The notes below the pieces were generated by a model. It was not told the origin of the DNA. It saw only the letters and a program-made list of their open reading frames with translations, and ran no database searches. Shown here one piece after another: positions 7,224 through 23,081 of a DNA stretch of 64,000 bases. The first letter of the stretch is position 1. Every line of letters starts with the position of its first letter. The DNA is from an uncultured Anaerolineaceae bacterium. GTDB lineage: Bacteria > Chloroflexota > Limnocylindria > Limnocylindrales > CSP1-4. The position numbers were made by a program, and so were the translations under genes. The DNA is taken from assembly GCA_964427285.1 (NCBI GenBank), contig CAYRTS010000005.1, forward strand, positions 3,646 through 67,645, in the 5' to 3' direction.

Positions 7224-8669
7224 GTGTCGTATCGTGACGAGGTGGTTGATCCCCCACCTCCGGAAGCGTTCGAGCCGACCTCCGATGCCATCGCTGGCGA
7301 GCACCGACCTGCGAGGCGACTCCAGATTGCCCTGACCCTGACGATCGTCGTGGCACTCGTCCTGGGGACGATCGGGGGTACGGGGTTGATCACTCCGTCC
7401 GCTCCCATCGTGGGAACGGACATGTTCGAAGGCGCGTCCCCGACGGAGCCCCGCCTCGTCGCCGTTGATGCCGCGGGCGGCGTGAGTACGATCGATCAGC
7501 ATGGTGGCTCCGTGGTGGCCTATCCCGTCCCGAGCGTCGCATTCCAGTTTCCGGCCTGGTCTCCGGACGGGACGTCCTTCGCCGCCATCGGCCGGGACGC
7601 CGAGGGGGCCGGTGTCTATGTCTTCGAGGCTCGCGCCCTCGGCCAGCCGCCAACGGATCCGGTCATCGTCTACGAGAGCGCCGACCATCCGCCCTTCTAC
7701 CTGTACTGGGCGCCGGACAGCCAACAGGTAACGTTCCTGACCAGCGAGGTCCAGCAATTGGCGTTGCGAATCGCGCCCGCTGACGGGCGGGCGGCGGCCG
7801 TCACCATCCGCGCCGGCGCACCCATCTACTGGGACTTCATCGATGCCGGACGGCTGCTGGTCCATGAGGGCGCGGCTGGGCCGGATGGCTTTTTCGGAGA
7901 AGTCACGGTGGCCGGTTCCGTGACCGGCACCCTGGGCGGACCGCCGGGCTTCTATCGGGCCCCGGCCACCGCGCTCGGTGGTCAAGTCCGGGCGTCTGTC
8001 GAGATCGGCGTCGGTCAGGATGGCGATGGACCGACCGGTGACCTGGTGGTCGAGCAACTCGACGGCAGCGACGCCAGCCGGATCCAGATCTTTGGGCCAG
8101 CCGCGCTCACGTTCTCAGCGCACGGTGACCAGCTGGCGTTCATCGCCGCGGACCGCGCTGGTCAGGGCGATCTCCCGTTGCCGGTCGGCCCGCTCCGGGT
8201 GCTGGACGTGGCCAGCGGGCAGGTAAGGACGCTCGTGGACGGCCGCGTCGTCGCGTTCTTCTGGTCCCCGAACGGCAAGACGATCGCTGCCCTCGGGGTT
8301 GATGGCACGAACGACGGCGTCATGGAGGCACGCTACGGCCCGGGGGGCCCGGGCGGAACCGTCACCCTCGCGCGCGCCAGCGGCGTGGAGGCTGCAGCCG
8401 GTGTCACGCTTCGACTGACCTTCGTGAACACCATCACGGGCTCGATCGTCTCGCAGGGCCTCGTGCGACTGTCCGACCTGTTCGTCAACCAGGTGCTCCC
8501 GTTCTTCGACCAGTACGCGCTCAGCCATCGGGTCTGGTCGCCCGATCTGTCTGCCGTCGTCCTGCCGATCGTGGGACAGGATGACGTCACACAGTTGTTC
8601 GTGATCCCGGCAGACGGCTCCGAGCCCCAGGCGGTGGCGACGGGCGAGATGGGATTCTGGAATCGATGA
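7224..8669 (+). CDS. Membrane-anchored TolB-like (PD40/WD40) beta-propeller protein
   Basis: One N-terminal TM helix (IALTLTIVVALVLGTIGG) and repeated FPAWSPDG, LYWAPDS, FFWSPNG, VWSPD motifs. Start estimated at GTG 7224. Confidence 0.8.
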   Translation: MSYRDEVVDPPPPEAFEPTSDAIAGEHRPARRLQIALTLTIVVALVLGTIGGTGLITPSAPIVGTDMFEGASPTEPRLVAVDAAGGVSTIDQHGGSVVAYPVPSVAFQFPAWSPDGTSFAAIGRDAEGAGVYVFEARALGQPPTDPVIVYESADHPPFYLYWAPDSQQVTFLTSEVQQLALRIAPADGRAAAVTIRAGAPIYWDFIDAGRLLVHEGAAGPDGFFGEVTVAGSVTGTLGGPPGFYRAPATALGGQVRASVEIGVGQDGDGPTGDLVVEQLDGSDASRIQIFGPAALTFSAHGDQLAFIAADRAGQGDLPLPVGPLRVLDVASGQVRTLVDGRVVAFFWSPNGKTIAALGVDGTNDGVMEARYGPGGPGGTVTLARASGVEAAAGVTLRLTFVNTITGSIVSQGLVRLSDLFVNQVLPFFDQYALSHRVWSPDLSAVVLPIVGQDDVTQLFVIPADGSEPQAVATGEMGFWNR

Positions 8670-8745
8670 GTATTCCTTTGGGCACATTGATCCGCGACGA
8701 TCGCTGCAGCCTGGCTGGGTTTGTCTCGATGGGCACCTGAGCGAA

Positions 8746-9317
8746 ATGAGGCGATGGGCAGATCGCCGAGCTCAAATCGGACGTCTCGATCAACGATATT
8801 CGAGCACGGGCCCTGACGCCCTTGCCGAGGGTCTCGACTCTACCGACCTTCTGGGCGAACTCGCACGGGCGATGCATGACGCCGCCGACGCGCAGTTTGC
8901 GCGGATCACGCCGGAGCTCGAACGCCAGCGGCTGCGCCTGGTCGAGTCCATCGTGGCGCGTGCCACCGTCGACACCGATGATCTCAAGGCCGAACTCGAG
9001 GCGGAGGCGGAAGAGATCAAGCTCGAGCGGATGCGTCGGATCGATGGTCGGCGCGGCGAGCATGCGGCGATCATCAGCCGCTCCCCGCCCCTACCACGGT
9101 CGATGAGCGGCGCGGGATGGCTCTCATGCAGCCCGCCCAGCCGGGGATCGCCACCCCGGATCCTGCCCGAACCTGGGGATCAGCGGATGCACAGCCATGG
9201 AGAGCCGAGGCCGCCAGACCGTGGGAACCCGCGACCCTGGCCGAGGTTCAACCGCCTGAGGTCCCCTCCCCGTCGTCACCAGGTGCATCAGCTGGACCAG
9301 CGAGAGAGGAGAACTGA
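8746..9317 (+). pseudogene. Putative frameshifted or degraded hypothetical gene (coiled-coil N-part, Pro-rich C-part)
   Basis: The 8746 frame gives a charged helical segment (LLGELARAMHDAADAQFARITPELERQRLRL..EIKLERMRRIDGRR) up to about 9070. A different frame (9117..9317) continues to a stop 7 nt from the convergent hydrolase stop. Confidence 0.4.
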
Positions 9318-9324
9318 CCGGGCG

Positions 9325-10272
9325 CTACGTCGCCAGTGTCCGGCCCAGGATCTCCATCAGCATGGCGATGAACCTGGGTTCATCCGCGTTCATGGCGAAG
9401 TCGACATTGGGCGCCTTGCGACTTCTGCCACGAAAATCGCACACCGTCCGACCCTGCGACAGTTCGCCGCCGGTCTCAACGTCCACGTGGATCAGGTGCG
9501 TGGTGATCACGGTCGGATCAATCACCGCGCAAACCGCCAGTGCGTCGTGGACCGGCGCCGCGCCGAGTCGGTGCATCGGCTGGGTCGCGTCGTAGCCCTC
9601 GATCCGCTTCTCGACGAAGATCGCGGTAGCCACCGCGGCCGGCGTGCCAAGGGCGCGGAGGCGGACGCAATCCTCACGCGACACCAGCGCCTGGTGGGTG
9701 GCGTCGAGCGGCACCATCCGGATCGGACGCCCGCAGTTGACCACGATCCGCGCCGCTTCCGGGTCCAGGAAGATGTTGAATTCGGCCGAGGCGGTGGCAT
9801 TGCCGTGGTCGTGGGCGCCGCCCATGATCACGATCTCGGGGATCCGCTCGATCATTCGCGGTTCCTTGCGCATCGCGGCGGCGACATTGGTCAGCGGGCC
9901 AACCGGGACCAGCGTGATATCGCCGTCCGATGCGAGGTAGGTATCGATCAGCCAGTCGACGGCGTGCTGGGAGCCCTTGCGCGAGCGCGCCGGTGGCAGG
10001 TCGAGGAAGTCGCCGTGGATCCGGGAGGCCGGGTTGAGTTGATGGGCATTGGGTCGCACGAGGGGCTGCGACATGCCTTCGTGAACCGGGACTCCGGTCA
10101 ACCCGATGTGGTCGAACACGCGGAGGGTGTTCTCGGTGCAGTTCGTGAGGGCCGTGTTGCCGTTTACCGTCGTCGCGCCGACCAGTTCGATGTCGGGCGA
10201 CAGCGCGGCCACCATCAGGGCCACGGCGTCATCGGTGCCGGTATCGACGTCCAGGATGATTCGTGTGGTCAT
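9325..10272 (-). CDS. Nucleoside hydrolase (IU-NH / Rih family)
   Basis: N-terminal DVDTGTDD, VGPLTN, AEFNIFLDPEAA and VHDALAV motifs. AAGGAGG RBS. Confidence 0.93.
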   Translation of the reverse strand: MTTRIILDVDTGTDDAVALMVAALSPDIELVGATTVNGNTALTNCTENTLRVFDHIGLTGVPVHEGMSQPLVRPNAHQLNPASRIHGDFLDLPPARSRKGSQHAVDWLIDTYLASDGDITLVPVGPLTNVAAAMRKEPRMIERIPEIVIMGGAHDHGNATASAEFNIFLDPEAARIVVNCGRPIRMVPLDATHQALVSREDCVRLRALGTPAAVATAIFVEKRIEGYDATQPMHRLGAAPVHDALAVCAVIDPTVITTHLIHVDVETGGELSQGRTVCDFRGRSRKAPNVDFAMNADEPRFIAMLMEILGRTLAT

Positions 10273-11797: not shown

Positions 11798-12322
11798 CTA
11801 CAGATCGACCCACCCGAGGCTACGGTCGACGCCCTTGTGCCAGCGAGCGATGCCGGCGGCCCGGGTCGACGCGTCCATCGCCGGCTCCCAACGCCGATCG
11901 ACACGATCCATGGCTCGAAGCTGGTCAAGGCCACTCCAGAACCCCACCGCCAGCCCAGCCGCATAGGCGGCGCCAAGCGCCGTGGTCTCGGCAATCGGCG
12001 GCGCCGCGAGAGGACGGTCGAGGATGTCCGCCTGGAACTGCATCAGCAGGTCGTTGGCGATCATCCCGCCATCGACACGCAGGTCGCCCGAAAGCGAGCT
12101 GCCCAGATCGGCGGCCATGGCCTCGCACAGATCGGACACCTGGTAGGCGGTCGCCTCCAGGGCAGCGCGCGCGATGTGACCGCGGGTCGCGAATGCCGTC
12201 AGGCCGGCAATCACCCCGCGCGCGTCGCTGCGCCAATGCGGCGCGAACAGCCCGGAAAACGCCGGAACGAAGACGACCCGGCCACTGTCGGGCACCGTGC
12301 GCGCCAGCGCCTCGATCTCGGA
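11798..12322 (-). pseudogene. glpK: Glycerol kinase C-terminal remnant (about 175 codons, 5' part missing)
   Basis: [49 protein letters not shown] are FGGY_C motifs. No N-domain, RBS or plausible start. Confidence 0.88.
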
Positions 12323-12728
12323 CTTCGCGCCCGCTGCGGTCGCGGCGGGCGTGACGCTCGTGATCGAGACCGAGGGCGATCTGCCGATCCTCGACCTCGA
12401 CCCGGTGCGGATGCGTGAGGTGCTCTCCAACCTCGTCGCGAATGCGTTGCGACATACGCCCGGGGGCGGCACCGTGTCGGTGGGTGGGTCGGCCAGGCGG
12501 CGGCTGGTCTGGCTGACGGTGCACGACACGGGGCCGGGCATCGACCGGGCGCTCCTGCCCCATATCTTCGACCGCTTCGTCAAGGGATCGGGGTCGCGAG
12601 GCTCGGGGCTGGGCCTGGCCATTGCGCGCGGCCTGGTCGAAGCGCACGGCGGGACGATCTCGGTGGCGTCGGCAGCCGGCGACAGGACCACCTTCCGCGT
12701 AGAGTTGCCGCGAACCCCAAACGACTGA
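12321..12728 (+). pseudogene. Sensor histidine kinase C-terminal remnant (HATPase_c only)
   Basis: N box [13 protein letters not shown]1 DTGPGI, F box IFDRF and G2 GSGLGL are present. No H-box, RBS or plausible start. Confidence 0.88.
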
Positions 12729-12792
12729 CGTCGAAGCCTGTGGGGCGCAGGACTCATGGTCCGGGGCGCACACCGCAGGGTTCAGCGGCGAG

Positions 12793-13176
12793 TCAGGCTC
12801 CAGCCTCGCGCGTCGACCAGTACTCCCGCCAGCCACCGAACCCGGTGATCTCACGGTGGATGCCTTCGGCCATCTCGCGCGGGAACAGGATGCCCGGCAC
12901 GACGCGACCGTCGGCCAGCTCCACTGGCCCGCGATAGAGACCCGGCGGCTCCCCGGCCTCCACGCTGGCCCAAACCTTGTCGGGCACGTCGTACAGCTCG
13001 CCCGGGACGGAGATCCCGCCCTCCGCCGCCTCGAACATGCCCGGGTGGACGTCTCCGATGGAATAGATCCGATAGCGCGGCGCGGTCATGAACTCGCCCA
13101 GAAATGTTGCGCCATCGAGGTTGGCGTTGAGCTTGAGGCCGCGCATGAGCGTGCCATTCACGAAGAGTTGCGCCAC
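12793..13176 (-). CDS. Stand-alone gamma-glutamylcyclotransferase-fold protein resembling the allophanate hydrolase C-terminal domain
   Basis: LFVNGTLMRG..TAPRYRIYS..GELYDVP..VELADG..EITGFGGWREY. AAGGAGG RBS before GTG. Confidence 0.8.
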   Translation of the reverse strand: MAQLFVNGTLMRGLKLNANLDGATFLGEFMTAPRYRIYSIGDVHPGMFEAAEGGISVPGELYDVPDKVWASVEAGEPPGLYRGPVELADGRVVPGILFPREMAEGIHREITGFGGWREYWSTREAGA

Positions 13177-13202
13177 GAAACCTCCTTCGTCACTGGAAGG
13201 GG

Positions 13203-13237
13203 GAGGCGCGGACGGCCTGAGGTTCCGTCCGCGCCTC
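13203..13237. terminator. Strong intercistronic stem-loop between permease and AH-C gene
   Basis: gaggcgcggacgg-N9-ccgtccgcgcctc, a perfect 13 bp stem. Confidence 0.5.
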
Positions 13238-13262
13238 GATCCCCCGAAACACTGATGCTTGG

Positions 13263-14885
13263 TCAGGCCATTTCGGACTCCGCTTCGGGCGGCGTGGTGA
13301 GCGCGGTCCGGAAGTCTGCCGACGTGGCGCGGCCCTCACGCCAGGCGACCACCCAGAAGACGATGGCCGCGAACGCGTAACCGAGGAAGACCGCGTTCGG
13401 TTGACCGAACACGATCGCCCCATCCACCACGGACACGATGAGCTGCGTGGCGTGGATGAAGCCGGTGACCGCGAGGATGGCGCCGACGACCGCGTAGACG
13501 ATCGCCCGGCTGTACTCGCGGTCGATGATGAACACCGCGATCGCGCCAAGGACCAGCCCGGCAACAACGGCGCCGCCACCGAAGATGGCCATCCCGTCGT
13601 AGATCACGCCCGCCCCGTTGAGCGGTCCAGAGCCAACCTCCGCGGCGCTGGTGCCGGCAGCCCCGAGCGCGCCATCGATCTGACCCTGGGCCCACGCGGC
13701 GATGTTCGGCAGCATTGCCAGGACGACCGCCGGGGCGTGTCGGGCGGGCGTCGTGGTGAACGCCTGTGCCCCGATCACGAGACCGATGAACAGCAGGATC
13801 GGGACGAGGGCCTGGATCGGGATGACGGCCAGGAACAGGCCGACCAACCCGAAGAGGCAGATCACTGCGACGACGACGCCGGTCGCCAGCGAGTAGCCGA
13901 TCCGGCCGCCGACGGCCTTCCAGCCGGGGTGGCCGATGTAGACGGCCGGCGGGAAGGGGCTGCCCAGGAATGAGCCGATCACGGCCCCGCCGCCGTCGGC
14001 CAGCAGGATGTGGCGGAGGTTGTAGTCGTCGCCGGCCGCCGAGGCGCTTTCGACGTTGTTCATCGCCTCGGTGAAGTTGTAGATGCCGAGCGGGATGGCT
14101 GTCACGAGCAACGGCAAAATCTGGCTCAAGCCGCTGATGACCTCGGTTCCTGGAATGGGCAGGTGGATGCCGAACTGGGCGAAGGAATCGCCGACGGCCT
14201 TGGGATCCATGCCGGTCCACGCGCCGCTCAGGTAGGCGATCCAACCGATCGCGGTACCGACCACGACCGCGAGCAATCCGCCGGGCACGCCGCCGGGCAT
14301 CCGGACGCCGGCCGTCCAGCTGAGCAGGATGATGGCCAGGACCGGCAACGCGATCCAGGGCACCTCGAACATCTGGAAGGCGGGCCGCATGGAGATGAAC
14401 GCGATCGAGATCCCGGCCAGCGTCCCGAGCATCGCCGCGCGGGGGGTGAAGCGCCGGATCGTCGGGCCGACGAAGGCTCCGATGAGGATGATCACGCCGA
14501 CGATGAACGCCCAGGCCAGGCCAGCCATCCAGGCCTCGAGCGGGGTCCCGCCGCGCAGGACGATCGGCAGCATGATCACGAAGGTGACGAAGAAGTAGTG
14601 CGGAACGCTCGGCCCGTACGGCATCGCCGTGACGTTCTCGCGACCCGTCTGCTTCGCTAACCGATAGGCCAGGAAGGCGTAGAACAGGTTGCCCAGCGGC
14701 AGCGCGATCGCCAACGCGGGCAGGATCCGTCCATAGACCGTGCCGGTGTCCAGGCCCACCACGAACAGGGCGAGGCCGGACAGCACGAGCACGTTGAGCA
14801 GGACGTTCGTTCCGAGGCCGAAGAATGCGTTCCAGTCACCCGGCACCCAGAGCTTCGGCTTGAATGCGCTGGAATTCGTGGTCAC
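13263..14885 (-). CDS. NCS2-like (xanthine/uracil/vitamin C permease-type) transporter
   Basis: 540 aa, many TM helices, with PGDWNAFFG, TAMPYGPSVPH and PFPPAVYIGHPGWKAVGGRIGYS motifs. GGAGAGG RBS. Confidence 0.85.
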   Translation of the reverse strand: MTTNSSAFKPKLWVPGDWNAFFGLGTNVLLNVLVLSGLALFVVGLDTGTVYGRILPALAIALPLGNLFYAFLAYRLAKQTGRENVTAMPYGPSVPHYFFVTFVIMLPIVLRGGTPLEAWMAGLAWAFIVGVIILIGAFVGPTIRRFTPRAAMLGTLAGISIAFISMRPAFQMFEVPWIALPVLAIILLSWTAGVRMPGGVPGGLLAVVVGTAIGWIAYLSGAWTGMDPKAVGDSFAQFGIHLPIPGTEVISGLSQILPLLVTAIPLGIYNFTEAMNNVESASAAGDDYNLRHILLADGGGAVIGSFLGSPFPPAVYIGHPGWKAVGGRIGYSLATGVVVAVICLFGLVGLFLAVIPIQALVPILLFIGLVIGAQAFTTTPARHAPAVVLAMLPNIAAWAQGQIDGALGAAGTSAAEVGSGPLNGAGVIYDGMAIFGGGAVVAGLVLGAIAVFIIDREYSRAIVYAVVGAILAVTGFIHATQLIVSVVDGAIVFGQPNAVFLGYAFAAIVFWVVAWREGRATSADFRTALTTPPEAESEMA

Positions 14886-14973
14886 GTCTTGGTATCTCCC
14901 TCTCCTGCGAAGCCAACGCGGGCCCCGCGTACGCTCCCTCCGTGAACTCCTCGCGGCGATCAGTCGATAGGCA

Positions 14974-15684
14974 TCACGCCGTCGCGGCGGCGGGGGCTGC
15001 CGCGACGGCGTCCGGGAACTGCTGGCCCAGGGCCTCGAGGAAGTCCGCCGACTTCCCGACGAAGCCGAAGATGCCGCCCTGGGCCTTGATCATGTCCAGC
15101 GCCACCCGCTGGAACTCCGGGAAGTACGAGGCCACGGCGTCCTCGAGGACGAGGGCGTCGTAGCCCCGGTCGTTCGCCTCGCGCACGCTCGTCTGGACGC
15201 ACACTTCCGTGGTCACGCCGCACACGATGAGCTGCCGGATGCCGCGGTTCTTGAGGATGGTGTCCGTGTCCGTGGCGTAGAACGCGCCCTTCCCCGGCTT
15301 GTCGATGATCGGCTCACCGGCGATCGGATAGACCTCCTCGACGATGTCGTGTCCATGCTCACCGCGAACCAGCAATCGCCCCATCGGGCCCTGGTCACCG
15401 ATGTGGATCTTGGGCCTGCCGCGCTCGTACTTCGCGGCCGGGAGGTCTGACAGGTCCGCTCGGTGGCCCTCCCGCGTGTGCATGATGAACAAGCCGGCTG
15501 CCCGGCACGCCTTGAGTACGCGCTCGGCCGCAGGAAGGGCCTTCAGCAGGAAGGAGGTGTCGTTGCCGAGCGATTCCCCGAAACCGCCTGGGTAGACGAA
15601 GTCCCGCTGGAAATCGATCATGACCAGGGCGGTGGTTTTTGGATCGAACTCGAACTCGTACGGTTCCGCCTTGGCTGACAGCAT
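14974..15684 (-). CDS. Isochorismatase-family cysteine hydrolase, triuret hydrolase (TrtA)/biuret hydrolase clade
   Basis: Triad context IDFQRDF, IDKPGKGAFYATD and GVTTEVCVQT, plus HTREGH, REANDRGY and QGGIFG. GAAGGAGG RBS. Confidence 0.85.
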   Translation of the reverse strand: MLSAKAEPYEFEFDPKTTALVMIDFQRDFVYPGGFGESLGNDTSFLLKALPAAERVLKACRAAGLFIMHTREGHRADLSDLPAAKYERGRPKIHIGDQGPMGRLLVRGEHGHDIVEEVYPIAGEPIIDKPGKGAFYATDTDTILKNRGIRQLIVCGVTTEVCVQTSVREANDRGYDALVLEDAVASYFPEFQRVALDMIKAQGGIFGFVGKSADFLEALGQQFPDAVAAAPAAATA

Positions 15685-15707
15685 CTCGTCGCCTCCTTCG
15701 TTCCTGG

Positions 15708-16694
15708 CTATGCGCCCGCCTGCACCGGATTGGGCAGGATGCGCGTTCCGGTTTCCCCGGCGATCGCCCGTTCGAGCGCCGCCGGGGTGGTGATGAGGAC
15801 TTCCTGGCCGCCGCGCTCGAGGAAGCGGATCGCCGCCTCGATCTTGGGCCCCATCGATCCCTTTGGGAACTCCCCCGCCTCCAGGTACTGCCTGGCCTCG
15901 TCGATCGCCATCCGATCGACCCACCGTTCGTCCGGTTGGCGGAAGTGGATCGCCACTCGCTCCACGCCGGTCGACAACACGAGCAGCGGGATGTCCAGGC
16001 TCGCGGCGAGCAGCGCCGAGGCGCGATCCTTGTCGATCACCGCCTCAACGCCTCGGTAGTGGCCTCGGCTCGTCTCGACCACGGCGACGCCACCGCCGCC
16101 GACGGCAATCACGATGAAGCCGGCCTCGACGAGCGCGCGGATCTGGTCGCCCTCCACAATCCGCAACGGCTCCGGCGACGCGACCACCCGGCGATAGCCA
16201 CGACCGGAATCCTCGATCATCGTCCAGCCGTTGCGCGCGGATTTCTGGTCGGCCTCCTCCTTCGAATAGAACGGGCCGATCGGTTTCGTTGGACGGCCGA
16301 ATGCCGGATCGTCCGAATCGACGACGACGTGGGTGAGCACGCACACGACGCGATCCGGCAGGCCGCGGGCCGCCAATTCGTTCAACAGGGCCTGGCCCAG
16401 GATGTGGCCAATTCCGCCCTGCGAGTCGGCCACCGACATCTCCAGGCTCAGCCGCGGCACCGGCGCATCGTCGGGCACCAGCTCCGAGCGAAGGAGGATG
16501 AAGCCGACCTGCGGGCCGTTGCCATGGGTGACGACAACGCCCCAGCCGGTCGCCACCAGGGCGGCGATGTGCTGCGAGGTCTCGCGGGCATTCTCGTACT
16601 GCTCCTCGATCGTGCCGCGCTGGCCGTCCAGGATCAGCGCGTTCCCACCGATCGCGATGACCGCCCGATGATCCACGGTCAGGCTTCCGTCCAC
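15708..16694 (-). CDS. arcC: Carbamate kinase (ArcC/YahI family)
   Basis: AIGGNAL, THGNGPQVG, PTKPIGPFY, YRRVVASP, EAVIDKD and GSMGPK. Confidence 0.95.
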   Translation of the reverse strand: MDGSLTVDHRAVIAIGGNALILDGQRGTIEEQYENARETSQHIAALVATGWGVVVTHGNGPQVGFILLRSELVPDDAPVPRLSLEMSVADSQGGIGHILGQALLNELAARGLPDRVVCVLTHVVVDSDDPAFGRPTKPIGPFYSKEEADQKSARNGWTMIEDSGRGYRRVVASPEPLRIVEGDQIRALVEAGFIVIAVGGGGVAVVETSRGHYRGVEAVIDKDRASALLAASLDIPLLVLSTGVERVAIHFRQPDERWVDRMAIDEARQYLEAGEFPKGSMGPKIEAAIRFLERGGQEVLITTPAALERAIAGETGTRILPNPVQAGA

Positions 16695-18136
16695 GAACGG
16701 TTCGCAACCCCGAGGGCAGCGGCGAGACCGCCAATGGCTGCGGCGAAGCAGGCCAGCGGCGCGCGGGCGATCCCCGCACCGATCTGGCCGACACCTGCCT
16801 GACGGTGGGCGATTCCCGTGTTAATGACCGGGGCGATCCCGGAGTCCACCACCCGGCGAGCATCGATCCCCGTCGGCGTCCCGATGAATCCCAGTGGCGG
16901 GAGCGCGTACGACGGGTTTCGGGCGAGCGTGATCCGTCCCATCAAGCGAGTGAACTCCAGTGCATCGGCCGGGCTCCCACCTACGAACCGGACGATGGCC
17001 GGCGCCGCCGCCATCGCAAACCCGCCGATTCCGAACGTCTCGGTGATCGCGCTGTCGCCGAGGTCCGGGTTGGCATCGTCGGGGCCGTAGCCCGGGAAGT
17101 AGAGCCCATCCGGCACCCCGACCGGCGTCGTGAACCAGGCGTCCCCGGTGCCGGACATCCGGATCCCGAAGTCAACGCCGTTGCGCGCCATCGCCGTCAC
17201 GACCGTCGACGCGTCGATTCCGTGCGCCGCATCCAGGGCGGACTTGCAGGCGGCCATCGACAGGTTCAGGAAGAAGTGGTCGTTACTGCGCAGGAAGTCG
17301 AGGACGGCCGCCGCGGTCGCCCGGTCGGCCGTGCGGACCAGGGCCGGAGCGATCGCCCGCGCAAAGAGCGAGGTCGCGGCGATATTGCGGTTGTGCCCTT
17401 CATCGCCCATCTGCAGCGCCTGGCCGGTCAGGCTGCGCAGGTCGAGCGGCCCGCCGGCTCGCAATGCACCCGACAGCGCCGGGCCGAGCGTATCGACGAA
17501 CCAGCGCAGGCGCTGCAGGACGGACGCGTCGTAGGCACCGAAGCGGAGGACCTTGCCAAGGCCCTCATTGAGGGTCGCGTGGGCGCGCGTCCCCGCGCTG
17601 ACATTCTCGACCACGACCACCGGCATGGACGGGCTGATCACGCCGGCCATCGGCCCGACGGCCGCATGGTGATGGCAGGGCGAGAGGCTGACCCGGCCGG
17701 ATTCGACGAGCGCGGTCGCCTCCTCCGGCGTGCCGGCCCATCCCTCGAACAGGGTCGCGCCGATGATGGCGCCCCTGACCGGCCCGCACATTCGATCCCA
17801 CTCGATCGGCGGGCCGGCGTGGAGAATCTGCCGATCCCCGAGTCCGAGAGCCACCCGCGCAGGCTGGACGTCGAGGAGCATTGGCTGGGCGGCCAGCAGG
17901 CGTTCAACCGCCGTGGCATTGGCCGCCGCGACCCTCCGACCGATCGGATCGTCCGGATCGTCCTCCAGGCGCGCAAGCAGCAAGCCGAGCTCTCGGTCGC
18001 CCTCGGCCGGCGGCCGCCAGTCGAGGTTGGCGACGGTGGCACCGTTGGCGACGAGCGGGGGGGCGAACATATCAAGCCCTACGTTCACTGCGCGCACGCC
18101 CTCGGGGAAAAGCACGGACGTTCCGGTCTGGCTCAT
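16679..18136 (-). CDS. DUF1116 protein, YahG-type (AllG/YlbE family)
   Basis: YahG-like N-terminus VNVGLDMF..LDWRPP, then ILHAGPP, PCHHHAAVGPMAG, LQMGDEGHNRN, NPDLGDSAITE and INTGIAH. Confidence 0.9.
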   Translation of the reverse strand: MSQTGTSVLFPEGVRAVNVGLDMFAPPLVANGATVANLDWRPPAEGDRELGLLLARLEDDPDDPIGRRVAAANATAVERLLAAQPMLLDVQPARVALGLGDRQILHAGPPIEWDRMCGPVRGAIIGATLFEGWAGTPEEATALVESGRVSLSPCHHHAAVGPMAGVISPSMPVVVVENVSAGTRAHATLNEGLGKVLRFGAYDASVLQRLRWFVDTLGPALSGALRAGGPLDLRSLTGQALQMGDEGHNRNIAATSLFARAIAPALVRTADRATAAAVLDFLRSNDHFFLNLSMAACKSALDAAHGIDASTVVTAMARNGVDFGIRMSGTGDAWFTTPVGVPDGLYFPGYGPDDANPDLGDSAITETFGIGGFAMAAAPAIVRFVGGSPADALEFTRLMGRITLARNPSYALPPLGFIGTPTGIDARRVVDSGIAPVINTGIAHRQAGVGQIGAGIARAPLACFAAAIGGLAAALGVANRSWTEA

Positions 18137-19764
18137 CGTTGAACTCCGGCCGCGACCGTCGCGGGCGCGACGATCCGGGCGGCCAGCCGGGCGGCCCGGG
18201 CGTTGCTCGGGGCGAGGATGACGCCGGCCTGGGCAAGGCGAGCCTCCTGGGCAGCGAGGCCCTGCGGGTCACCACTCGTCCCGCACACCGAGGCGATAAC
18301 GGCAAATCGGCGCCCCTGCCGGGCGGCTTCCGCCCGGGCAGCGTCGATCGCGCCCGCGAGATCGCCGGCGGGGTCCGGGTTGGAGCCATAGCCGATGACG
18401 ACGTCGAGCAGGATGACCGCGGTGGATGGATCGCTGGCCGCGGCCGCGAGGTGTTCGTTCCGAAGGCGCGGATCGATCATCGGGTGCGGTCGACCGACGG
18501 TGTACTCGTCGTCGCCGAGGTCGACGACCTCGTGGCGCTTGGCCGCGTCCGCCCCCAGCGAGGCGCGCAGGACGAGCTTTGCCTCCCCGGCCAGCGAGCC
18601 GCCGCTGTACAGGCCGCGAATTCGCCACTGCCCGGGATCCAGGGCGGCCTTCGCCTGGCGAACGGCGAATGACCCGGCCCCATGCTGCCCGGCGTCGGCT
18701 GCGTCGGCTGCGTCGTCCGACGCATGGGGCGCGGCCGCGTCTGGCGCCTCGGGCGTGTCCGCGCCGGGGCCATCGTCCGCGCCCAGGCTGTCATCAACGG
18801 GCACCGGGCGTCCCAGCGCCATCGCGCTGGCGATCGCGGCGGCCGCCTCAAAGGTCGCGGCGGGAATTGATCCGGCAGCGGTCACGATCGCCGGGTCGCC
18901 GCCCAGGAAGTTCACAATGACCGGCTTGGCGATGCTGCCTGCCGCGGCCAGGACCCGCTCCGCGACGGCCGCCGCCGGTGGCTTCGAGATGAGGACGATC
19001 AGATCCGTGGCCGGATCGGCCGCCAGCCGCTCCAGGGCGGCCAGCATCATCACGCCACCGACCCGCTCATCGAGGTCGCGCCCGCCGACACCGATCGCCT
19101 GGGACACGCCGGCGCCAAAGCGGTCGATCAGGCAACTCACCTGTTGCAGGCCGGTGCCCGACGCGCCGATCAACCCGATCGAGCCCCGCCGCACGGCGTT
19201 GGCGAACCCGAGCGGAACCCCGTCGACGATCGCCGTGCCGCAGTCCGGGCCCATGACGAGCAGGCCCCTGGCGCGAGCGAGCGCCTTCAATTCGATCTCG
19301 TCCTCGATCGGGACGTTGTCGCTGAACAGGAAGACATGGAGACCTCGCTTGAGAGCCTTGAGCGCCTCCGCAGTGGCATAGGTCCCCGGCGTGGAGATGA
19401 GGGCGAGATTGGCCGTGCCAAGCTCGACCGTGGCCTCGGCGATCGTCCGGACCGTCGTGCCCACCGCCTCGTTTGGGCCTTCGGAGCCCGATCCGGCCAA
19501 TCGCGCCGCAGCCCGATCCAGCGCCTGGGCGACCACGTCCTCGTCGCTTGCCGAGAGCGCCACCACGAGGTCATTCGGCCCGGCTCCGGCAACCGCCTCC
19601 GACAAGAGGCCCGCGGCAGCCAACACCTCCAGATTGGCGGGCGTGGCCATGACCAGGCCCGCCCGATCGACGCCGGCCATCGCCTCGAGTTCGGCGGCGA
19701 TCTGCATCAACTCGACCGAGTCCCGGTAGCTGTTGCGAAACACGCGGGCGTGAACGGTCGCCAT
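18133..19764 (-). CDS. fdrA: FdrA/YahF (AllF-family) acyl-CoA-synthetase-fold protein
   Basis: YRDSVELM, FLFSDNV, MGPDCGT, GASGTGLQ, GVGGRDL, ISKPP, YSGGSL and DLGDDEYTVGRPHPMIDP. The start overlaps the upstream stop (TGATG). Confidence 0.92.
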   Translation of the reverse strand: MATVHARVFRNSYRDSVELMQIAAELEAMAGVDRAGLVMATPANLEVLAAAGLLSEAVAGAGPNDLVVALSASDEDVVAQALDRAAARLAGSGSEGPNEAVGTTVRTIAEATVELGTANLALISTPGTYATAEALKALKRGLHVFLFSDNVPIEDEIELKALARARGLLVMGPDCGTAIVDGVPLGFANAVRRGSIGLIGASGTGLQQVSCLIDRFGAGVSQAIGVGGRDLDERVGGVMMLAALERLAADPATDLIVLISKPPAAAVAERVLAAAGSIAKPVIVNFLGGDPAIVTAAGSIPAATFEAAAAIASAMALGRPVPVDDSLGADDGPGADTPEAPDAAAPHASDDAADAADAGQHGAGSFAVRQAKAALDPGQWRIRGLYSGGSLAGEAKLVLRASLGADAAKRHEVVDLGDDEYTVGRPHPMIDPRLRNEHLAAAASDPSTAVILLDVVIGYGSNPDPAGDLAGAIDAARAEAARQGRRFAVIASVCGTSGDPQGLAAQEARLAQAGVILAPSNARAARLAARIVAPATVAAGVQR

Positions 19765-20687
19765 CAGCCGGCCCATCGTCCGGGCTCGCTGGCGACGTCC
19801 AGTCCGAGCAGGACTCCCAGCAGGCAGTCCGTACCGGACGTTGCCCCCCAAGCGATGGCCCGTTGAATGGCGGCGGGGACTGCCTCATCTGCATGACCGA
19901 GGAGCGCCGCCAGCAATGCCTGGATCCGCTCCGCGAACTCGCCTGCCGCGGCATGGCGCAGCAGCGTGGCCGCGATGACGGTCGTCCGATCGTCAACGTC
20001 GTGGATCGCACCGCCAACGAAGCCCGCCAGCGGGCCGTCCAAAGCACGAAGAGCCGCTTCGACGCCTACCAGGACGTCATCCCCCGACGGGGTGAGGCCC
20101 GGTCCCAGGCCGATCAGCCCTCGTGCGGCACGATGGGCTGCCGGGCGATTGCCCGCCAACAGGGACGCTCGCAACGCGTCGACGCTGGCGCCGGCCCGTC
20201 GGACAACGCCAGGGTCATCTGCGCTGGGCGAACCCGCCCCGAGCAGCGCGCCCAGACCGCCCGGGACGGCCCGAGCGCGAGCCTCCGCCCAGGCGACTCC
20301 CCGCCGACCGCGCCACCGGTCGGCGGCCCGGGACAGCCCCCCGTCGGGACATGCCAGCCGCGCTGACCAGCGGGCGGCCGCCATGAGGTCAATCTCAAGC
20401 CCGATGGCCGGGACGCCGACCGACATGTCCGTCGCGACGACCCCCATCCCGCGCCTCAGGCCGAGCGCCCGGAAATCCGGCCCGAGGTCGACCAGAATCC
20501 CGTTGGGCAGACCACCGAGCCACGGCGCGGCAAGGCACAGCAGCCCGTCCGGGATCGAGACATTGACCACCGACCGGTAGACGCTGTGGATCCTGGCGGC
20601 GGGCGGAACGCCCGCGGCGATGCGGCGCGCAACGGCATCGCTGAGGCCCGTGGCGGCATGGGTGCGGGTCGGCCAGGTTGCCAGCAT
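19764..20687 (-). CDS. DUF2877 protein (YahE/YlbF/AllH family)
   Basis: IHSVYRSVVN, LIGLGPGLTPSGDDVLVG and WGATSGTDCLLG. Confidence 0.88.
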   Translation of the reverse strand: MLATWPTRTHAATGLSDAVARRIAAGVPPAARIHSVYRSVVNVSIPDGLLCLAAPWLGGLPNGILVDLGPDFRALGLRRGMGVVATDMSVGVPAIGLEIDLMAAARWSARLACPDGGLSRAADRWRGRRGVAWAEARARAVPGGLGALLGAGSPSADDPGVVRRAGASVDALRASLLAGNRPAAHRAARGLIGLGPGLTPSGDDVLVGVEAALRALDGPLAGFVGGAIHDVDDRTTVIAATLLRHAAAGEFAERIQALLAALLGHADEAVPAAIQRAIAWGATSGTDCLLGVLLGLDVASEPGRWAG

Positions 20688-20696
20688 CTGCCGGAC

Positions 20697-20725
20697 ATCG
20701 TACGAACAGTGTTGCGCCCCGTCAC
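20697..20725 (-). promoter_or_regulatory. Promoter of the DUF2877-fdrA operon: GTGACG-N17-TACGAT
   Basis: -10 TACGAT at 20697-20702 and -35 GTGACG at 20720-20725. ATG lies 9 nt downstream with no RBS. Confidence 0.55.
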
Positions 20726-20741
20726 TGTCCGATATCCACAT
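20725..20741. promoter_or_regulatory. Candidate PucR-family operator CTGTCC-N5-CCACAT
   Basis: TGT-N9-ACA geometry like the B. subtilis PutR box TTGTGG-N5-CCACAA. It lies between the two divergent -35 boxes. Confidence 0.45.
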
Positions 20742-20770
20742 TGACACAGCGCACGACTGTCGAGTATCCA
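20741..20770 (+). promoter_or_regulatory. Candidate promoter of the PucR-family regulator: TTGACA-N18-TATCCA
   Basis: Consensus -35 and imperfect -10. ATG lies 7 nt downstream. Confidence 0.4.
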
Positions 20771-20777
20771 TAGGGCA

Positions 20778-22373
20778 ATGCTCGATGGCGTACTGCTCGG
20801 CGACGTCCTGCGCCTTCCGACGTTGGCGCGGGCCAACGTCGTTGGCGGCAACGCCGGCCTACGACGACCCGTTCGCGGCGTCAACGTCATGGAGGTGCCG
20901 GACATCCTCGAATGGGTGAAACCGGACGAGCTGCTGCTGACCACGGCCTACCCGCTGCGAGATGATCCCGTGGCGCTCGCCGCGCTCATCCCCCACCTCG
21001 CCGAACGGGGCCTGGCCGGCATCGCGCTCAAGCCCGGCCGGTACATCAAGACCATTCCCGCGTCCATGGTCGAGGCGGCCGATCGCCACGACTTTGCGCT
21101 CATTGAGCTTCCCCCCGAAGCGTCGTTCAACGAGATCATCAAGTCCGTCCTCACGGTCATCCTCGATGCCCAGGCGGTCCGGTTGCAGCGGTCGGCTGCG
21201 ATCCACGACCGGTTCACCAGCATCGCCCTGTCGGGCGGTGGCCTCCGGCAGATCGCCGAGGCACTGGCCGAGCTCATCGCGCGACCGGTCGCGATCGTCG
21301 ATGCCCAGGGGATCGTGCAATGGCGTACCTCGGATGAAGCGCCGATGTCGGGTGGCGCGGACGGCCCTGGGCCGCGAGCCATCGTCCAGCCGATCCAGGT
21401 CGGCATTGAGCGATACGGCGCCATCCTCGTTCCCAGCGGCGAGGCGGATCTCGGGCCGGACCGTTTGGAAGCGATCGAATACGCCGCCACCGTCGCGGCC
21501 CTTCGCCAGGTCCAGACCCGCGCTGTCGCGGAGGCCGATCGCCGATTCCAGGCGGTGTGTCTCGAGGAGCTGATCACCGGGCATGTCACGGATCGCAGCG
21601 TCCTGATGGAGCGGGCCGCTGCATTCGCCTGGGACCTGGCCACACCGCGGGCGGTCCTCCTGGCGGAAATCGAGGTGATCGCGGGGCGGCCGTTCTCGGC
21701 CCTGGCCGGCACCCCCGAGGAGGCCGCGTTTCGCCATCGGCTGGCCGAGGCCGCGCGGGCCAGTCTCGGACCGACGGCGATCATCTGGGAGCGGAGTCGC
21801 GAGATCGGGGCGCTGATTTCGGCCGGCACACCGACCGGAACGGGCGGTCACGACCAGCGCTGGCGCGCCGGACCCGCCCAGTTGCGCGAGATTGGTGCGG
21901 CACTCCAAACCGAGGCCGGCCGGCGCCTACCCGGTGCGGTCGTCAGCGTCGGGATCGGCCGGCCGGCCCCCGACCCGCTCGACCTCCACGGATCGTTCAG
22001 TCAGGCTCGACGGGCATTGACCATCGGCCGCTGGGGAAGCGGACCCGGCGTCGTGACTGCGTTCGACGATCTCGGGCTGGACCGGCTCCTGGTGGCCGTT
22101 CCGGATCCGGAAGCCGCCGCCTTCTGCGCCGCGGTCCTGGGGCCGCTTGAGGTCTACGATGCGGCTCGCGGGACCAGCCTCGTGGCGACTCTGGAGACAT
22201 TCCTGGCGACGCGCAATGCGGCCCTCGCCGCGCGCAGCCTGTACCTCCACTACAACACGCTCAAGAACCGCCTGGCCAGGATCGAGGAGATCATCGGGCC
22301 ATACCTCGACGACCCGGACCGGTGCCTCAGCCTCGCGCTGGCGCTGCGCCTCCGACGGCTGCCGGCCTCGTAG
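20778..22373 (+). CDS. PucR-family transcriptional regulator
   Basis: N-terminal purine-catabolism sensing domain ([36 protein letters not shown]), a GGDEF-like middle, and C-terminal [21 protein letters not shown]. Confidence 0.93.
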
Positions 22374-22902
22374 GGGCACCAAGCTCCACCTCGTCGACGC
22401 CGTCGATCTCCGTGACGTGCACGTTCACCCGCTCGGCCGGGGCGGTGGGCAGGTTGCGGCCAACGTGGTCGGCCCGGATCGGAAGCTCGCGATGGCCGCG
22501 ATCGACGAGCACCGCCAGCCGGATCGCCAGTGGGCGCCCAAAATCGGTCAATGCGTCCATCGCCGCCCGGATCGTACGACCCGTAAACAGGACGTCATCG
22601 ACCAGGACGACCGTGCGCTCGTTGATGTCAAACGGCAGCTCTGTCGAGCGCACGATGGGGTAGGTCGCGACCTCCGAGAGATCGTCCCGATAGAGCGCGA
22701 TGTCGAGCGCACCTACCGGCAATCGGACACGGTCGGATTTCTCGATCGCGTCGGCCATGCGCCTGGCCAGCACGACACCACGTCGCTGGATCCCGATCAG
22801 GACCAGACCGTCCGGGCCGCCGTGGCGCTCGACGATTTCGTGGCCGAGTCGCACCACCGCGCGGTGGATCTGGTCCGCATCCATCACCGACCGTGCTGAC
22901 AT
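22327..22902 (-). CDS. pyrR: Bifunctional pyr attenuation regulator / uracil phosphoribosyltransferase
   Basis: [19 protein letters not shown] motif [17 protein letters not shown] and [24 protein letters not shown]. Confidence 0.95.
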
Positions 22903-23081
22903 CGGGCCGCCTCCAATGCGCGAAGCGCGGAGCGTAGTCGTGAATAGCGGCCGGGGCAAGGAGAAGCCCGGCTGACCGATGTGGGGCCCTGCCACCGACA
23001 GGGAACATGCGCCGCGCCTCCGGAGTCTCTCCGCACACGGACCGACCCATCCTGCGTCGGCCGACCACAGGAGGATCGACG

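Follow-up and report, generated by a model that had tools for sequence, protein, structure and literature searches.

A PucR-linked operon joining a TrtA-type hydrolase to an FdrA/DUF1116 carbamoyltransferase module: a candidate energy-conserving route for triuret in an uncultured Chloroflexota bacterium

Introduction

The gene cluster described here lies at positions 12793-22373 of a stretch of 64 000 nucleotides (the window; contig CAYRTS010000005.1, assembly GCA_964427285.1) from an uncultured Anaerolineaceae bacterium, placed by GTDB in the Limnocylindria (Chloroflexota). It consists of seven minus-strand genes in one direction and a divergent PucR-family gene on the plus strand. A first-pass annotation of the DNA had proposed that a triuret-hydrolase-like enzyme is joined there to an FdrA-type carbamoyltransferase and a carbamate kinase in an undescribed ATP-yielding ureide pathway. 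This proposal was followed up by comparative genomics. The cluster may be an operon under PucR control that breaks down triuret or a closely similar polyureide, recovering nitrogen and making ATP by substrate-level phosphorylation, and we give this reading an even chance of being right. It is carried by the identity of the hydrolase, by the recurrence of its link to the carbamoyltransferase genes to the exclusion of biuret hydrolase (BiuH), and by the link of cyanuric acid hydrolase to the same genes.

Results

The three carbamoyltransferase subunits DUF2877 (AllH-type), FdrA (AllF-type) and DUF1116 (AllG-type) are abbreviated as H-F-G and carbamate kinase as CK; H-F-G and CK together are called the module. 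In the order of transcription, the seven minus-strand genes encode DUF2877, FdrA, DUF1116, CK, a cysteine hydrolase, a permease and an AH_C protein. The PucR gene diverges from position 20778. The features are listed by coordinates and strand, with the best supporting match.

12793-13176, minus strand: stand-alone AH_C protein, 127 aa, without an amidase domain (PF21986, E 8.7e-31)
13263-14885, minus strand: polytopic permease, 540 aa, tentatively of a divergent AzgA-like group (NCS2 superfamily) (names of relatives and a weak AdeP match)
14974-15684, minus strand: TrtA-type cysteine hydrolase of the isochorismatase family, 236 aa (PF00857, E 7.5e-42)
15708-16694, minus strand: carbamate kinase, 328 aa (PRK12352, 386 bits; cut-off 266)
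16679-18136, minus strand: DUF1116/AllG-type subunit, 485 aa (PF06545, E 2.5e-95)
18133-19776, minus strand: FdrA/AllF-type subunit, succinyl-CoA-synthetase-alpha-like, 547 aa (PRK06091, 492 bits; cut-off 433)
19764 to about 20741, start uncertain, minus strand: DUF2877/AllH-type subunit (PF11392, E 2.5e-26)
20688-20777, no strand: short presumed control region between the divergent genes (sequence read directly)
20778-22373, plus strand: PucR-family regulator, 531 aa (PucR, GGDEF_2 and HTH_30 domains)

The first four transcribed genes overlap by 13, 4 and 16 bp, which suggests translational coupling of the H-F-G and CK genes; the later gaps are 23, 88 and 86 bp. All eight genes of the first-pass annotation were confirmed with their coordinates and strands, as were the overlaps of the first four and the divergence of the PucR gene. 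The DUF2877 gene has start candidates at 20687, 20741 and 20771, and the protein is called with 325 aa on an identical public contig. Conservation begins at about residues 33-60 of the longest open reading frame, which favours the start at 20687. A scan of the operon for promoters and terminators gave no signal above shuffled sequence. At 20741-20777, a TTGACA-N18-TATCCA pair ends 7 nt 5' of the pucR ATG; it is not accepted by the promoter-scan rules and is only a lead, and it would imply a leaderless or near-leaderless pucR transcript.

The G+C content of the window is about 69%. The public sequences nearest to it come from soil metagenome-assembled genomes of Chloroflexota / Candidatus Limnocylindria, in which the DUF1116 protein is 98-99% identical. 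No homologue of E. coli AllA-E, BiuH or AtzF was found across the 64 kb by tblastn (E<1e-8, at least 50% coverage), in line with the earlier statement that allantoinase, allantoate amidohydrolase and ureidoglycolate dehydrogenase are lacking in the window.

The hydrolase was compared with solved structures. TrtA (6XIX) was the best match with 263 bits, followed by the Rhodococcus and Rhizobium BiuH structures (233 and 216 bits) and RutB (100 bits). In the alignment to 6XIX, the catalytic triad D24, K129 and C162 and the substrate-binding residues Glu72, Lys132 and Gln202 are all present. At the six positions where the TrtA and BiuH consensus sequences differ, the protein has the TrtA residue six times (F35, N41, A134, E160, Y187 and I205), and BiuH sequences have Y, Y, S/A, D, T and V; the catalytic, substrate-binding and consensus residues were taken from PMC7948467. 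The score against the BiuH equivalog model NF050097 was 262.5 bits, under the cut-off of 370, and that against the RutB equivalog was 111 bits (cut-off 378). By these sequence features the window hydrolase is of the TrtA type, and the label triuret-hydrolase-like that it had received earlier is well founded. The same signature was looked for in 41 hydrolases that adjoin DUF1116 genes and cover the region in the alignment. It is complete save for conservative changes in seven of them (A134S, F35V with A134S, or I205L), all at non-catalytic positions. TrtA is reported in only 1-2% of genomes (PMC7948467). In the Herbaspirillum reference locus the order is AtzF, ABC transporter genes, BiuH, ABC ATPase, TrtA, AtzH-like protein and GntR; in a neighbour-joining tree, canonical TrtA genes and TrtA genes linked to the module form two separate groups.

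Gene neighbourhoods were surveyed three times with 10-kb flanks, each time on the best 80 of more than 550 hits, among which related genomes are not independent. Neighbouring genes were called by tblastn of reference proteins with at least 50% query coverage. Among the 80 loci closest to the window's DUF1116 gene, 40 have a TrtA-type gene within 10 kb. They come from six phyla and include Chloroflexota, Verrucomicrobiota, Methylomirabilota, Actinomycetota, Spirochaetota and Alpha-, Beta- and Gammaproteobacteria. The association that the first-pass annotation had set as a check thus recurs widely. Homologues of AllA, AllC, AllD and AllE were found in none of these 80 loci, so that the closest modules have no oxalurate supply nearby. 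AllB-like genes lie upstream of PucR in three relatives; they adjoin an aspartate carbamoyltransferase gene and were rejected as allantoinase, since they are most likely part of a pyrB/pyrC pair. Some DUF1116 loci without TrtA, in Spirochaetota, Thermotogota and others (L059, L060, L075, L076, L078, L079 and L083), contain other recurrent families of about 817, 340, 291/272 and 175 aa. In these loci DUF2877 is placed about 5 kb downstream and not upstream; they point to another context of the module.

The second survey was centred on the Herbaspirillum TrtA. BiuH stands about 2.3 kb upstream in nearly all of its 80 closest relatives, and AtzF is present in many; FdrA, DUF1116 and CK were found beside none of them. 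The third covered the 80 loci closest to the window hydrolase. FdrA/DUF1116 was present in 27 and BiuH in 14, and no locus had both (Fisher p=0.0018, related genomes not being independent). The AtzH-like TrtB was found in 10 of these 80 loci, never alongside the module. The most constant neighbour of window-like TrtA is an AzgA-like permease (about 67 of the 80 loci). The TrtA-permease pair thus appears to join either the hydrolytic BiuH route or the carbamoyltransferase-kinase module, and such exclusion is what would be expected if the module consumes the product of TrtA. The occurrence of AtzF beside the module without BiuH was considered as proof of allophanate production and dropped, because TrtA-permease-AtzF loci also exist with neither BiuH nor module.

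Cyanuric acid hydrolase, which is unrelated to TrtA and has a different substrate, also makes 1-carboxybiuret (PMC7948467). A protein search of plasmids with the DUF1116 protein located a ring-opening amidohydrolase within or beside the DUF2877-FdrA-DUF1116-CK genes on two plasmids, an IncX5 plasmid of Leclercia (L247, 1949-9590) and the IncP plasmid pSR8 of Aminobacter sp. SR38 (L246, 7034-20846). Both amidohydrolases scored well above the cut-off of 360 against the AtzD equivalog (551 and 580 bits). An identity as barbiturase, which would make ureidomalonate the substrate, was ruled out by these 551-580 bits against only 327 bits to barbiturase structures. No BiuH, AtzE or AtzF is annotated nearby in either plasmid neighbourhood. 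These minimal clusters consist only of cyanuric acid hydrolase, a permease, H-F-G, CK and a regulator, and they contain neither a decarboxylase nor an enzyme that consumes urea or allophanate. The same DUF1116 match (54.7% identity) was found on conjugative plasmids of Citrobacter, Klebsiella, Enterobacter and E. coli from clinical sources; this refers to the DUF1116 match alone and not to its neighbourhood.

On genomes, FdrA/DUF1116 lies beside cyanuric acid hydrolase in 23 of 59 loci, including those of Moorella mulderi, Enterococcus aquimarinus, Carnobacterium and Paenibacillus. In Amphibacillus marinus (L255, 1272-11095), a single module is flanked by permease-TrtA on one side and by cyanuric acid hydrolase on the other. 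A Carnobacterium locus (L254, 2748-16800) combines TrtA, cyanuric acid hydrolase and one module, and has a BiuH-like gene too. TrtA and cyanuric acid hydrolase share only their product, which argues that carboxybiuret or a direct derivative feeds the carbamoyltransferase. This is the strongest argument of the analysis, and the link of cyanuric acid hydrolase to H-F-G-type genes was not found in the searchable literature. The earlier tie of the hydrolase to an FdrA-type carbamoyltransferase and CK is thereby strengthened: it recurs, it takes the place of BiuH and it is mirrored by cyanuric acid hydrolase.

The FdrA protein contains CoA_binding and Ligase_CoA domains, and HMA_AllF_N is recorded for an identical protein. 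CK scored 345 bits against arcC TIGR00746, just below the cut-off of 358. The N-terminus of the DUF1116 protein (VNVGLDMF...LDWRPP, residues 12-57) has its counterpart at the C-terminal end of both AllF and the FdrA model from E. coli; the domain boundary reported earlier is therefore real. It had been taken, with the gene order, as a mark of the E. coli yah type, and this label did not hold. The DUF1116 protein is 53% identical to AllG, 48% to YahG and 55% to the DUF1116 protein of a third E. coli set. FdrA is 39-40% identical to YahF and AllF alike, the DUF2877 subunit is nearer to AllH, and CK is nearer to YahI than to AllK (49% vs 39%). The order DUF2877-FdrA-DUF1116-CK and the N-terminal extension of DUF1116 are common to most of the 80 closest DUF1116 loci. 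By this comparison, the yah-like order and boundary are the usual state of the family and are not diagnostic for yah orthology. In neighbour-joining trees of DUF1116 the deep branches are short and unresolved, and among the sampled loci those nearest to YahG, and likewise those nearest to AllG, are linked to cyanuric acid hydrolase. The sampled loci that come closest to YahG, in Clostridiales and Flavonifractor (L036 and L049), have a cyanuric-acid-hydrolase-like gene and a PucR-like regulator, and L036 also has a YahJ-like amidohydrolase. This context is a possible substrate clue for the orphan yah genes. The clue that had been expected from the window is thus indirect only: the nearest YahG relatives sampled are linked to cyanuric acid hydrolase, and the window module itself is not yah.

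By sequence identity, the window module is the orthologue of the third, unnamed E. coli set and belongs to neither all nor yah. In this set a cysteine hydrolase with the TrtA signature is followed by DUF2877, fdrA, DUF1116, arcC, an AH_C gene (129 aa), an NCS1 permease and a LysR regulator. Its proteins are 63% (TrtA-type hydrolase), 55% (DUF1116), 50% (CK) and 47% (AH_C) identical to those of the window; its DUF1116 protein is 46.5% identical to YahG and 48% to AllG. An orthologous cluster of 8.2 kb is present in 1556 of 5426 complete E. coli genomes (about 29%), at 1502 chromosomal and 129 plasmid places, and the copy on the E. coli plasmid NZ_CP019909.1 (L248, 9983-18161) was used as reference. 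The set represents extra paralogues in E. coli strains that already have allFGHK. The cluster was noted in 2026 as GR29 of the avian pathogenic strain BEN2908 and read as Rut-like pyrimidine degradation (PMC12928451). An fdrA/ylbE signal in a transcriptome of uropathogenic E. coli (PMC7439467) was considered and set aside, as it belongs to the all operon and not to the third cluster.

The AH_C protein has the allophanate-hydrolase C-terminal, GGACT-like fold. Its best match among solved structures is 5C5Z, a stand-alone protein of 137 aa (91 bits). The entry bears the name 'Glutamyl-tRNA amidotransferase', which looks wrong; the protein is almost the same as the AH_C protein in the E. coli cluster (L248, 15558-15947). 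The window protein was tested as an allophanate hydrolase: it has no amidase-signature domain, which the AtzF proteins of related loci combine with AH_C. There are 32 distinct window-like stand-alone AH_C proteins; all 32 are in TrtA loci, 31 with the module and 0 with cyanuric acid hydrolase. In 28 of the 32, a permease gene, of either the AzgA-like or the NCS1 type, lies no more than 400 bp away. Two Cellulomonas genomes (L066, about 13000-15031; L067, about 8030-9998) have a single reading frame in which the permease runs on into AH_C; the junction reads ...GWKARNEKNTELDDDILFVNGTLMRGLEL....

A role of AH_C in assisting decarboxylation had been proposed for this locus and is not upheld. The known carboxybiuret decarboxylase, TrtB, is an AtzH-like protein by sequence and so belongs to another family: the gene after trtA in Herbaspirillum matches PF11533 (AtzH-like) with E 1.5e-56, as is also stated in a figure legend of PMC12625717, and PF11533 was found in none of the genes of the window operon. 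Stand-alone AH_C is absent from all 26 loci that combine cyanuric acid hydrolase and DUF1116, which argues that it is not needed downstream of carboxybiuret. Judged by its distribution, a general decarboxylase role for AH_C is unlikely, and the protein is better seen as a probable accessory tied to the permease/TrtA step.

The permease matched no Pfam or NCBIfam model (PF00860 / NCS2 models included) and no PDB sequence. Its close relatives are named AGZA family or adenine/guanine/hypoxanthine permease by JGI. A weak local match to E. coli AdeP covers 52 residues (AdeP 282-332) at the equivalent position (E 0.002), and a profile comparison with E. coli YbbY gave no match. The AlphaFold2 model from a 24-sequence alignment had a pLDDT of 53.7, too low for it to inform the assignment. 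Of the earlier designation as an NCS2-like permease, the polytopic permease stands, and the NCS2 part is weakly founded, on the JGI names of relatives and the one weak AdeP match. The protein is likely the importer of the TrtA substrate. In L023, L024, L027, L052, L062, L064, L188 and L192, two AzgA-like permease paralogues (about 56% and 49% identical to that of the window) stand in tandem and AH_C is lacking. The divergent PucR arrangement is also present in Chloroflexota relatives and Cellulomonas; other lineages have LysR or GntR.

The genes that flank the operon are unrelated to it (DnaG, DeaD, MMPL, ADC, FGGY fragment, PRTase, DUF2330, cupredoxin, malic enzyme and PPDK). The open reading frame at 11798-12757 (minus strand), 36 bp 3' of the AH_C gene, contains only a C-terminal FGGY kinase domain (residues 149-270 of 319). 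Most of the N-terminal domain is missing; the gene may be truncated or its start misplaced, and it is not kept in related loci. A phosphoribosyltransferase gene at 22327-22995 (minus strand) converges on the 3' end of pucR with an overlap of about 47 bp; it matches Pribosyltran and, weakly, UPRTase, and is PyrR-like. On the same side as this gene, relatives (L016) have aspartate carbamoyltransferase and an AllB-like amidohydrolase, probably pyrB/pyrC.

Discussion

The substrate of each enzyme and the direction of flux are deduced in what follows from the gene identities, the operon structure and the comparative-genomic coupling established above. The AzgA-like permease would import the substrate, and the TrtA-type hydrolase would deamidate triuret to 1-carboxybiuret and NH3. 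The H-F-G complex would then transfer the terminal carbamoyl group of carboxybiuret to phosphate, giving carbamoyl phosphate and allophanate. It would probably act again on allophanate and phosphate to give carbamoyl phosphate and carbamate. CK would convert carbamoyl phosphate and ADP into ATP, NH3 and CO2. Such a module would replace the hydrolytic BiuH/AtzF route and would need no urease.

The only family member with a known substrate is AllFGH, which acts on oxalurate (PMC11326118). Carboxybiuret (H2N-CO-NH-CO-NH-COO-) is oxalurate (H2N-CO-NH-CO-COO-) with one inserted NH, and this chemical kinship speaks for an anionic substrate, as does the content of the minimal plasmid clusters, with neither a decarboxylase nor an enzyme consuming urea or allophanate. 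E. coli normally has no urease and no allophanate route. A pathway ending in carbamate instead of urea is favoured because the orthologous cluster is common in this species, where a urea route would waste half of the nitrogen. The same argument from the lack of urease has been made for AllFGH (PMC11326118). Carboxybiuret or allophanate is therefore the likelier substrate of H-F-G than biuret.

A broader proposal is made more tentatively, since we hold the chances to be somewhat against it. H-F-G would be a 1-carboxybiuret/allophanate:phosphate carbamoyltransferase that, with CK, would complete a urease-independent mineralisation of triuret (through TrtA) and of cyanuric acid (through cyanuric acid hydrolase), yielding up to 2 ATP per molecule. 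Phosphorolysis of N-carboxy-ureides, and not cleavage of oxalurate, would be the main or ancestral job of the family, including the cluster present in about 29% of E. coli genomes and possibly yah.

Several points weigh against the triuret pathway. The substrate assignments rest on guilt by association, the specificity of TrtA is deduced from residues that were defined on one enzyme, and oxalurate is the substrate of the one carbamoyltransferase of this family that has been characterised. Carboxybiuret loses CO2 spontaneously, with a half-life of about 20 min (PMC7948467), so that the complex could in truth act on biuret. In about half of the cases a window-like TrtA-permease pair stands without BiuH and without the module in its neighbourhood, which means that TrtA needs neither strictly in cis. 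AtzF, BiuH and the module occur together in some clusters (L081; L253, L254) and in those of comammox Nitrospira (PMC12625717), an arrangement that parallel pathways would fit too. Finally, the scheme assigns no function to the AH_C protein, conserved though it is. The evidence is comparative throughout, and it is unusually consistent.

The alternative that survives best is the one put forward in the first-pass annotation, in which carboxybiuret decarboxylates, spontaneously or aided by AH_C, and H-F-G cleaves neutral biuret to carbamoyl phosphate and urea. Decarboxylation within minutes needs no help (PMC7948467), the module is mutually exclusive with BiuH, the consumer of biuret, and the TrtA-linked clusters have AH_C and no TrtB, all of which would suit this scheme. 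Yet AH_C is found in 0 of the 26 loci with cyanuric acid hydrolase and DUF1116, where the same carboxybiuret is made, and the proven decarboxylase, TrtB, comes from another family. Urea would lead nowhere in E. coli, where the cluster is found in 29% of the genomes and where urease and the allophanate route are normally lacking. Moreover, the family is known to act on an anion that ends in a carboxylate, and biuret has no such group. Biuret as the phosphorolysed substrate is possible and less favoured than carboxybiuret or allophanate; we consider this alternative improbable, at roughly one chance among five.

Slightly lower still we place the view that H-F-G is an ordinary oxamate carbamoyltransferase acting on oxalurate and that TrtA works separately, the two being co-located because both substrates are by-products of purine oxidation. 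It is the reading held in PMC12625717 and was the other option of the first-pass annotation; in both forms we find it unlikely. Activity on oxalurate is proven for AllFGH of E. coli (PMC11326118), AllG and the DUF1116 subunit of the window share 53% identity, purine catabolism is controlled by PucR regulators, and a complete BiuH/AtzF route stands beside the module in some clusters. Parallel pathways would nevertheless leave the mutual exclusion with BiuH unexplained, as well as the presence of a second, unrelated carboxybiuret-forming enzyme on the same module. The window and most of its relatives lack BiuH/AtzF for the product of TrtA and AllD for oxalurate, and E. coli strains with allFGH carry the cluster as an additional paralogue set. 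Very improbable is the Rut-like degradation of pyrimidines proposed for GR29 (PMC12928451), in which the hydrolase would take the part of RutB and act on a ureido-acid derived from a ring-opened pyrimidine: a distant relationship to RutB (111 bits to the model, 100 bits to structures) and the NCS1 'cytosine permease' of the clusters in E. coli and Serratia speak for it, but the model score is far under the cut-off of 378, the TrtA signature is full, RutA and the other rut genes are absent, and the link to cyanuric acid hydrolase instead of barbiturase points to s-triazine and polyureide chemistry.

All protein families of the operon are known, and their co-location was published in 2025-26 and read otherwise (PMC12625717, PMC12928451). 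The serial energy-conserving reading, the exclusion of BiuH, the link to cyanuric acid hydrolase and the link between permease and AH_C were not found in the searchable literature. The pathway had been called undescribed at the outset: this applies to the serial ATP-yielding reading and not to the co-location of the genes. If the carboxybiuret/allophanate reading is true, the reaction would be a new enzymatic one and would open a third carboxybiuret route, beside AtzEG and TrtB-BiuH-AtzF, and the first to conserve energy. It would provide a function for a large, widespread group of FdrA/DUF1116/DUF2877 proteins now annotated as 'acyl-CoA synthetase FdrA' and DUFs, a group that includes the cluster of about 8 kb that about 29% of the complete E. 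coli genomes have and that conjugative plasmids of Enterobacteriaceae also carry. It would also have a bearing on what happens in soil, gut and urine to the triuret and cyanuric acid that stem from urea fertiliser, s-triazine herbicides, pool chemicals and oxidised purines, and would explain the presence of cyanuric acid hydrolase in anaerobes such as Moorella and Enterococcus. With an orthologous cluster in E. coli and a probable existing AH_C structure (5C5Z), the hypothesis is open to routine genetics and coupled enzyme assays.

The operon can be compared with several known systems. The TrtA-TrtB-BiuH-AtzF pathway of Herbaspirillum (PMC7948467) shares its first enzyme, which is about 60% identical and has the same catalytic and specificity residues. 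The Herbaspirillum locus has BiuH, the AtzH-like TrtB, AtzF and a Bmp/ABC transporter, whereas the window lacks these and has H-F-G, CK, AH_C and the AzgA-like permease instead. Genes of the same families (trtA/biuH/atzF and allFGHK) lie together in comammox Nitrospira and ammonia-oxidising archaea, as published in 2025 and read there as two separate pathways, one for triuret/biuret and one for oxalurate (PMC12625717). The nitrifier clusters keep BiuH and AtzF (or a GatA-like amidase), and the window is a reduced form, in which the module would be the only possible consumer of the TrtA product.

E. coli AllFGH with AllK (PMC11326118, PMC9843812) comprises the same three families followed by CK, with a DUF1116 subunit 53% identical, and presumably follows the same logic, in which phosphorolysis of an N-acylurea gives carbamoyl phosphate and then ATP. 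The gene order is H-F-G-K in the window and F-G-H-K in the all operon, and about 50 residues that end AllF in E. coli begin the DUF1116 protein in the window. The partner enzyme is a TrtA-type hydrolase in the window, where no allantoin genes are nearby, and ureidoglycolate dehydrogenase in the all operon. The yahE-yahF-yahG-yahI-yahJ genes of E. coli K-12 share the order (DUF2877, FdrA-like, DUF1116, CK, then a hydrolase) and the domain boundary. They differ in that YahG, 48% identical, lies in another part of the DUF1116 tree, among Firmicutes loci with cyanuric acid hydrolase, and in that the hydrolase that follows, YahJ, is a metal-dependent amidohydrolase and that of the window a cysteine hydrolase. 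The closest counterpart in E. coli is the cluster known as GR29 in the avian pathogenic strain BEN2908 (PMC12928451) and carried by many IncF plasmids. It has an orthologous module with the same six enzyme and accessory genes, and is served by an NCS1 permease and a LysR regulator where the window has an AzgA-like permease and PucR.

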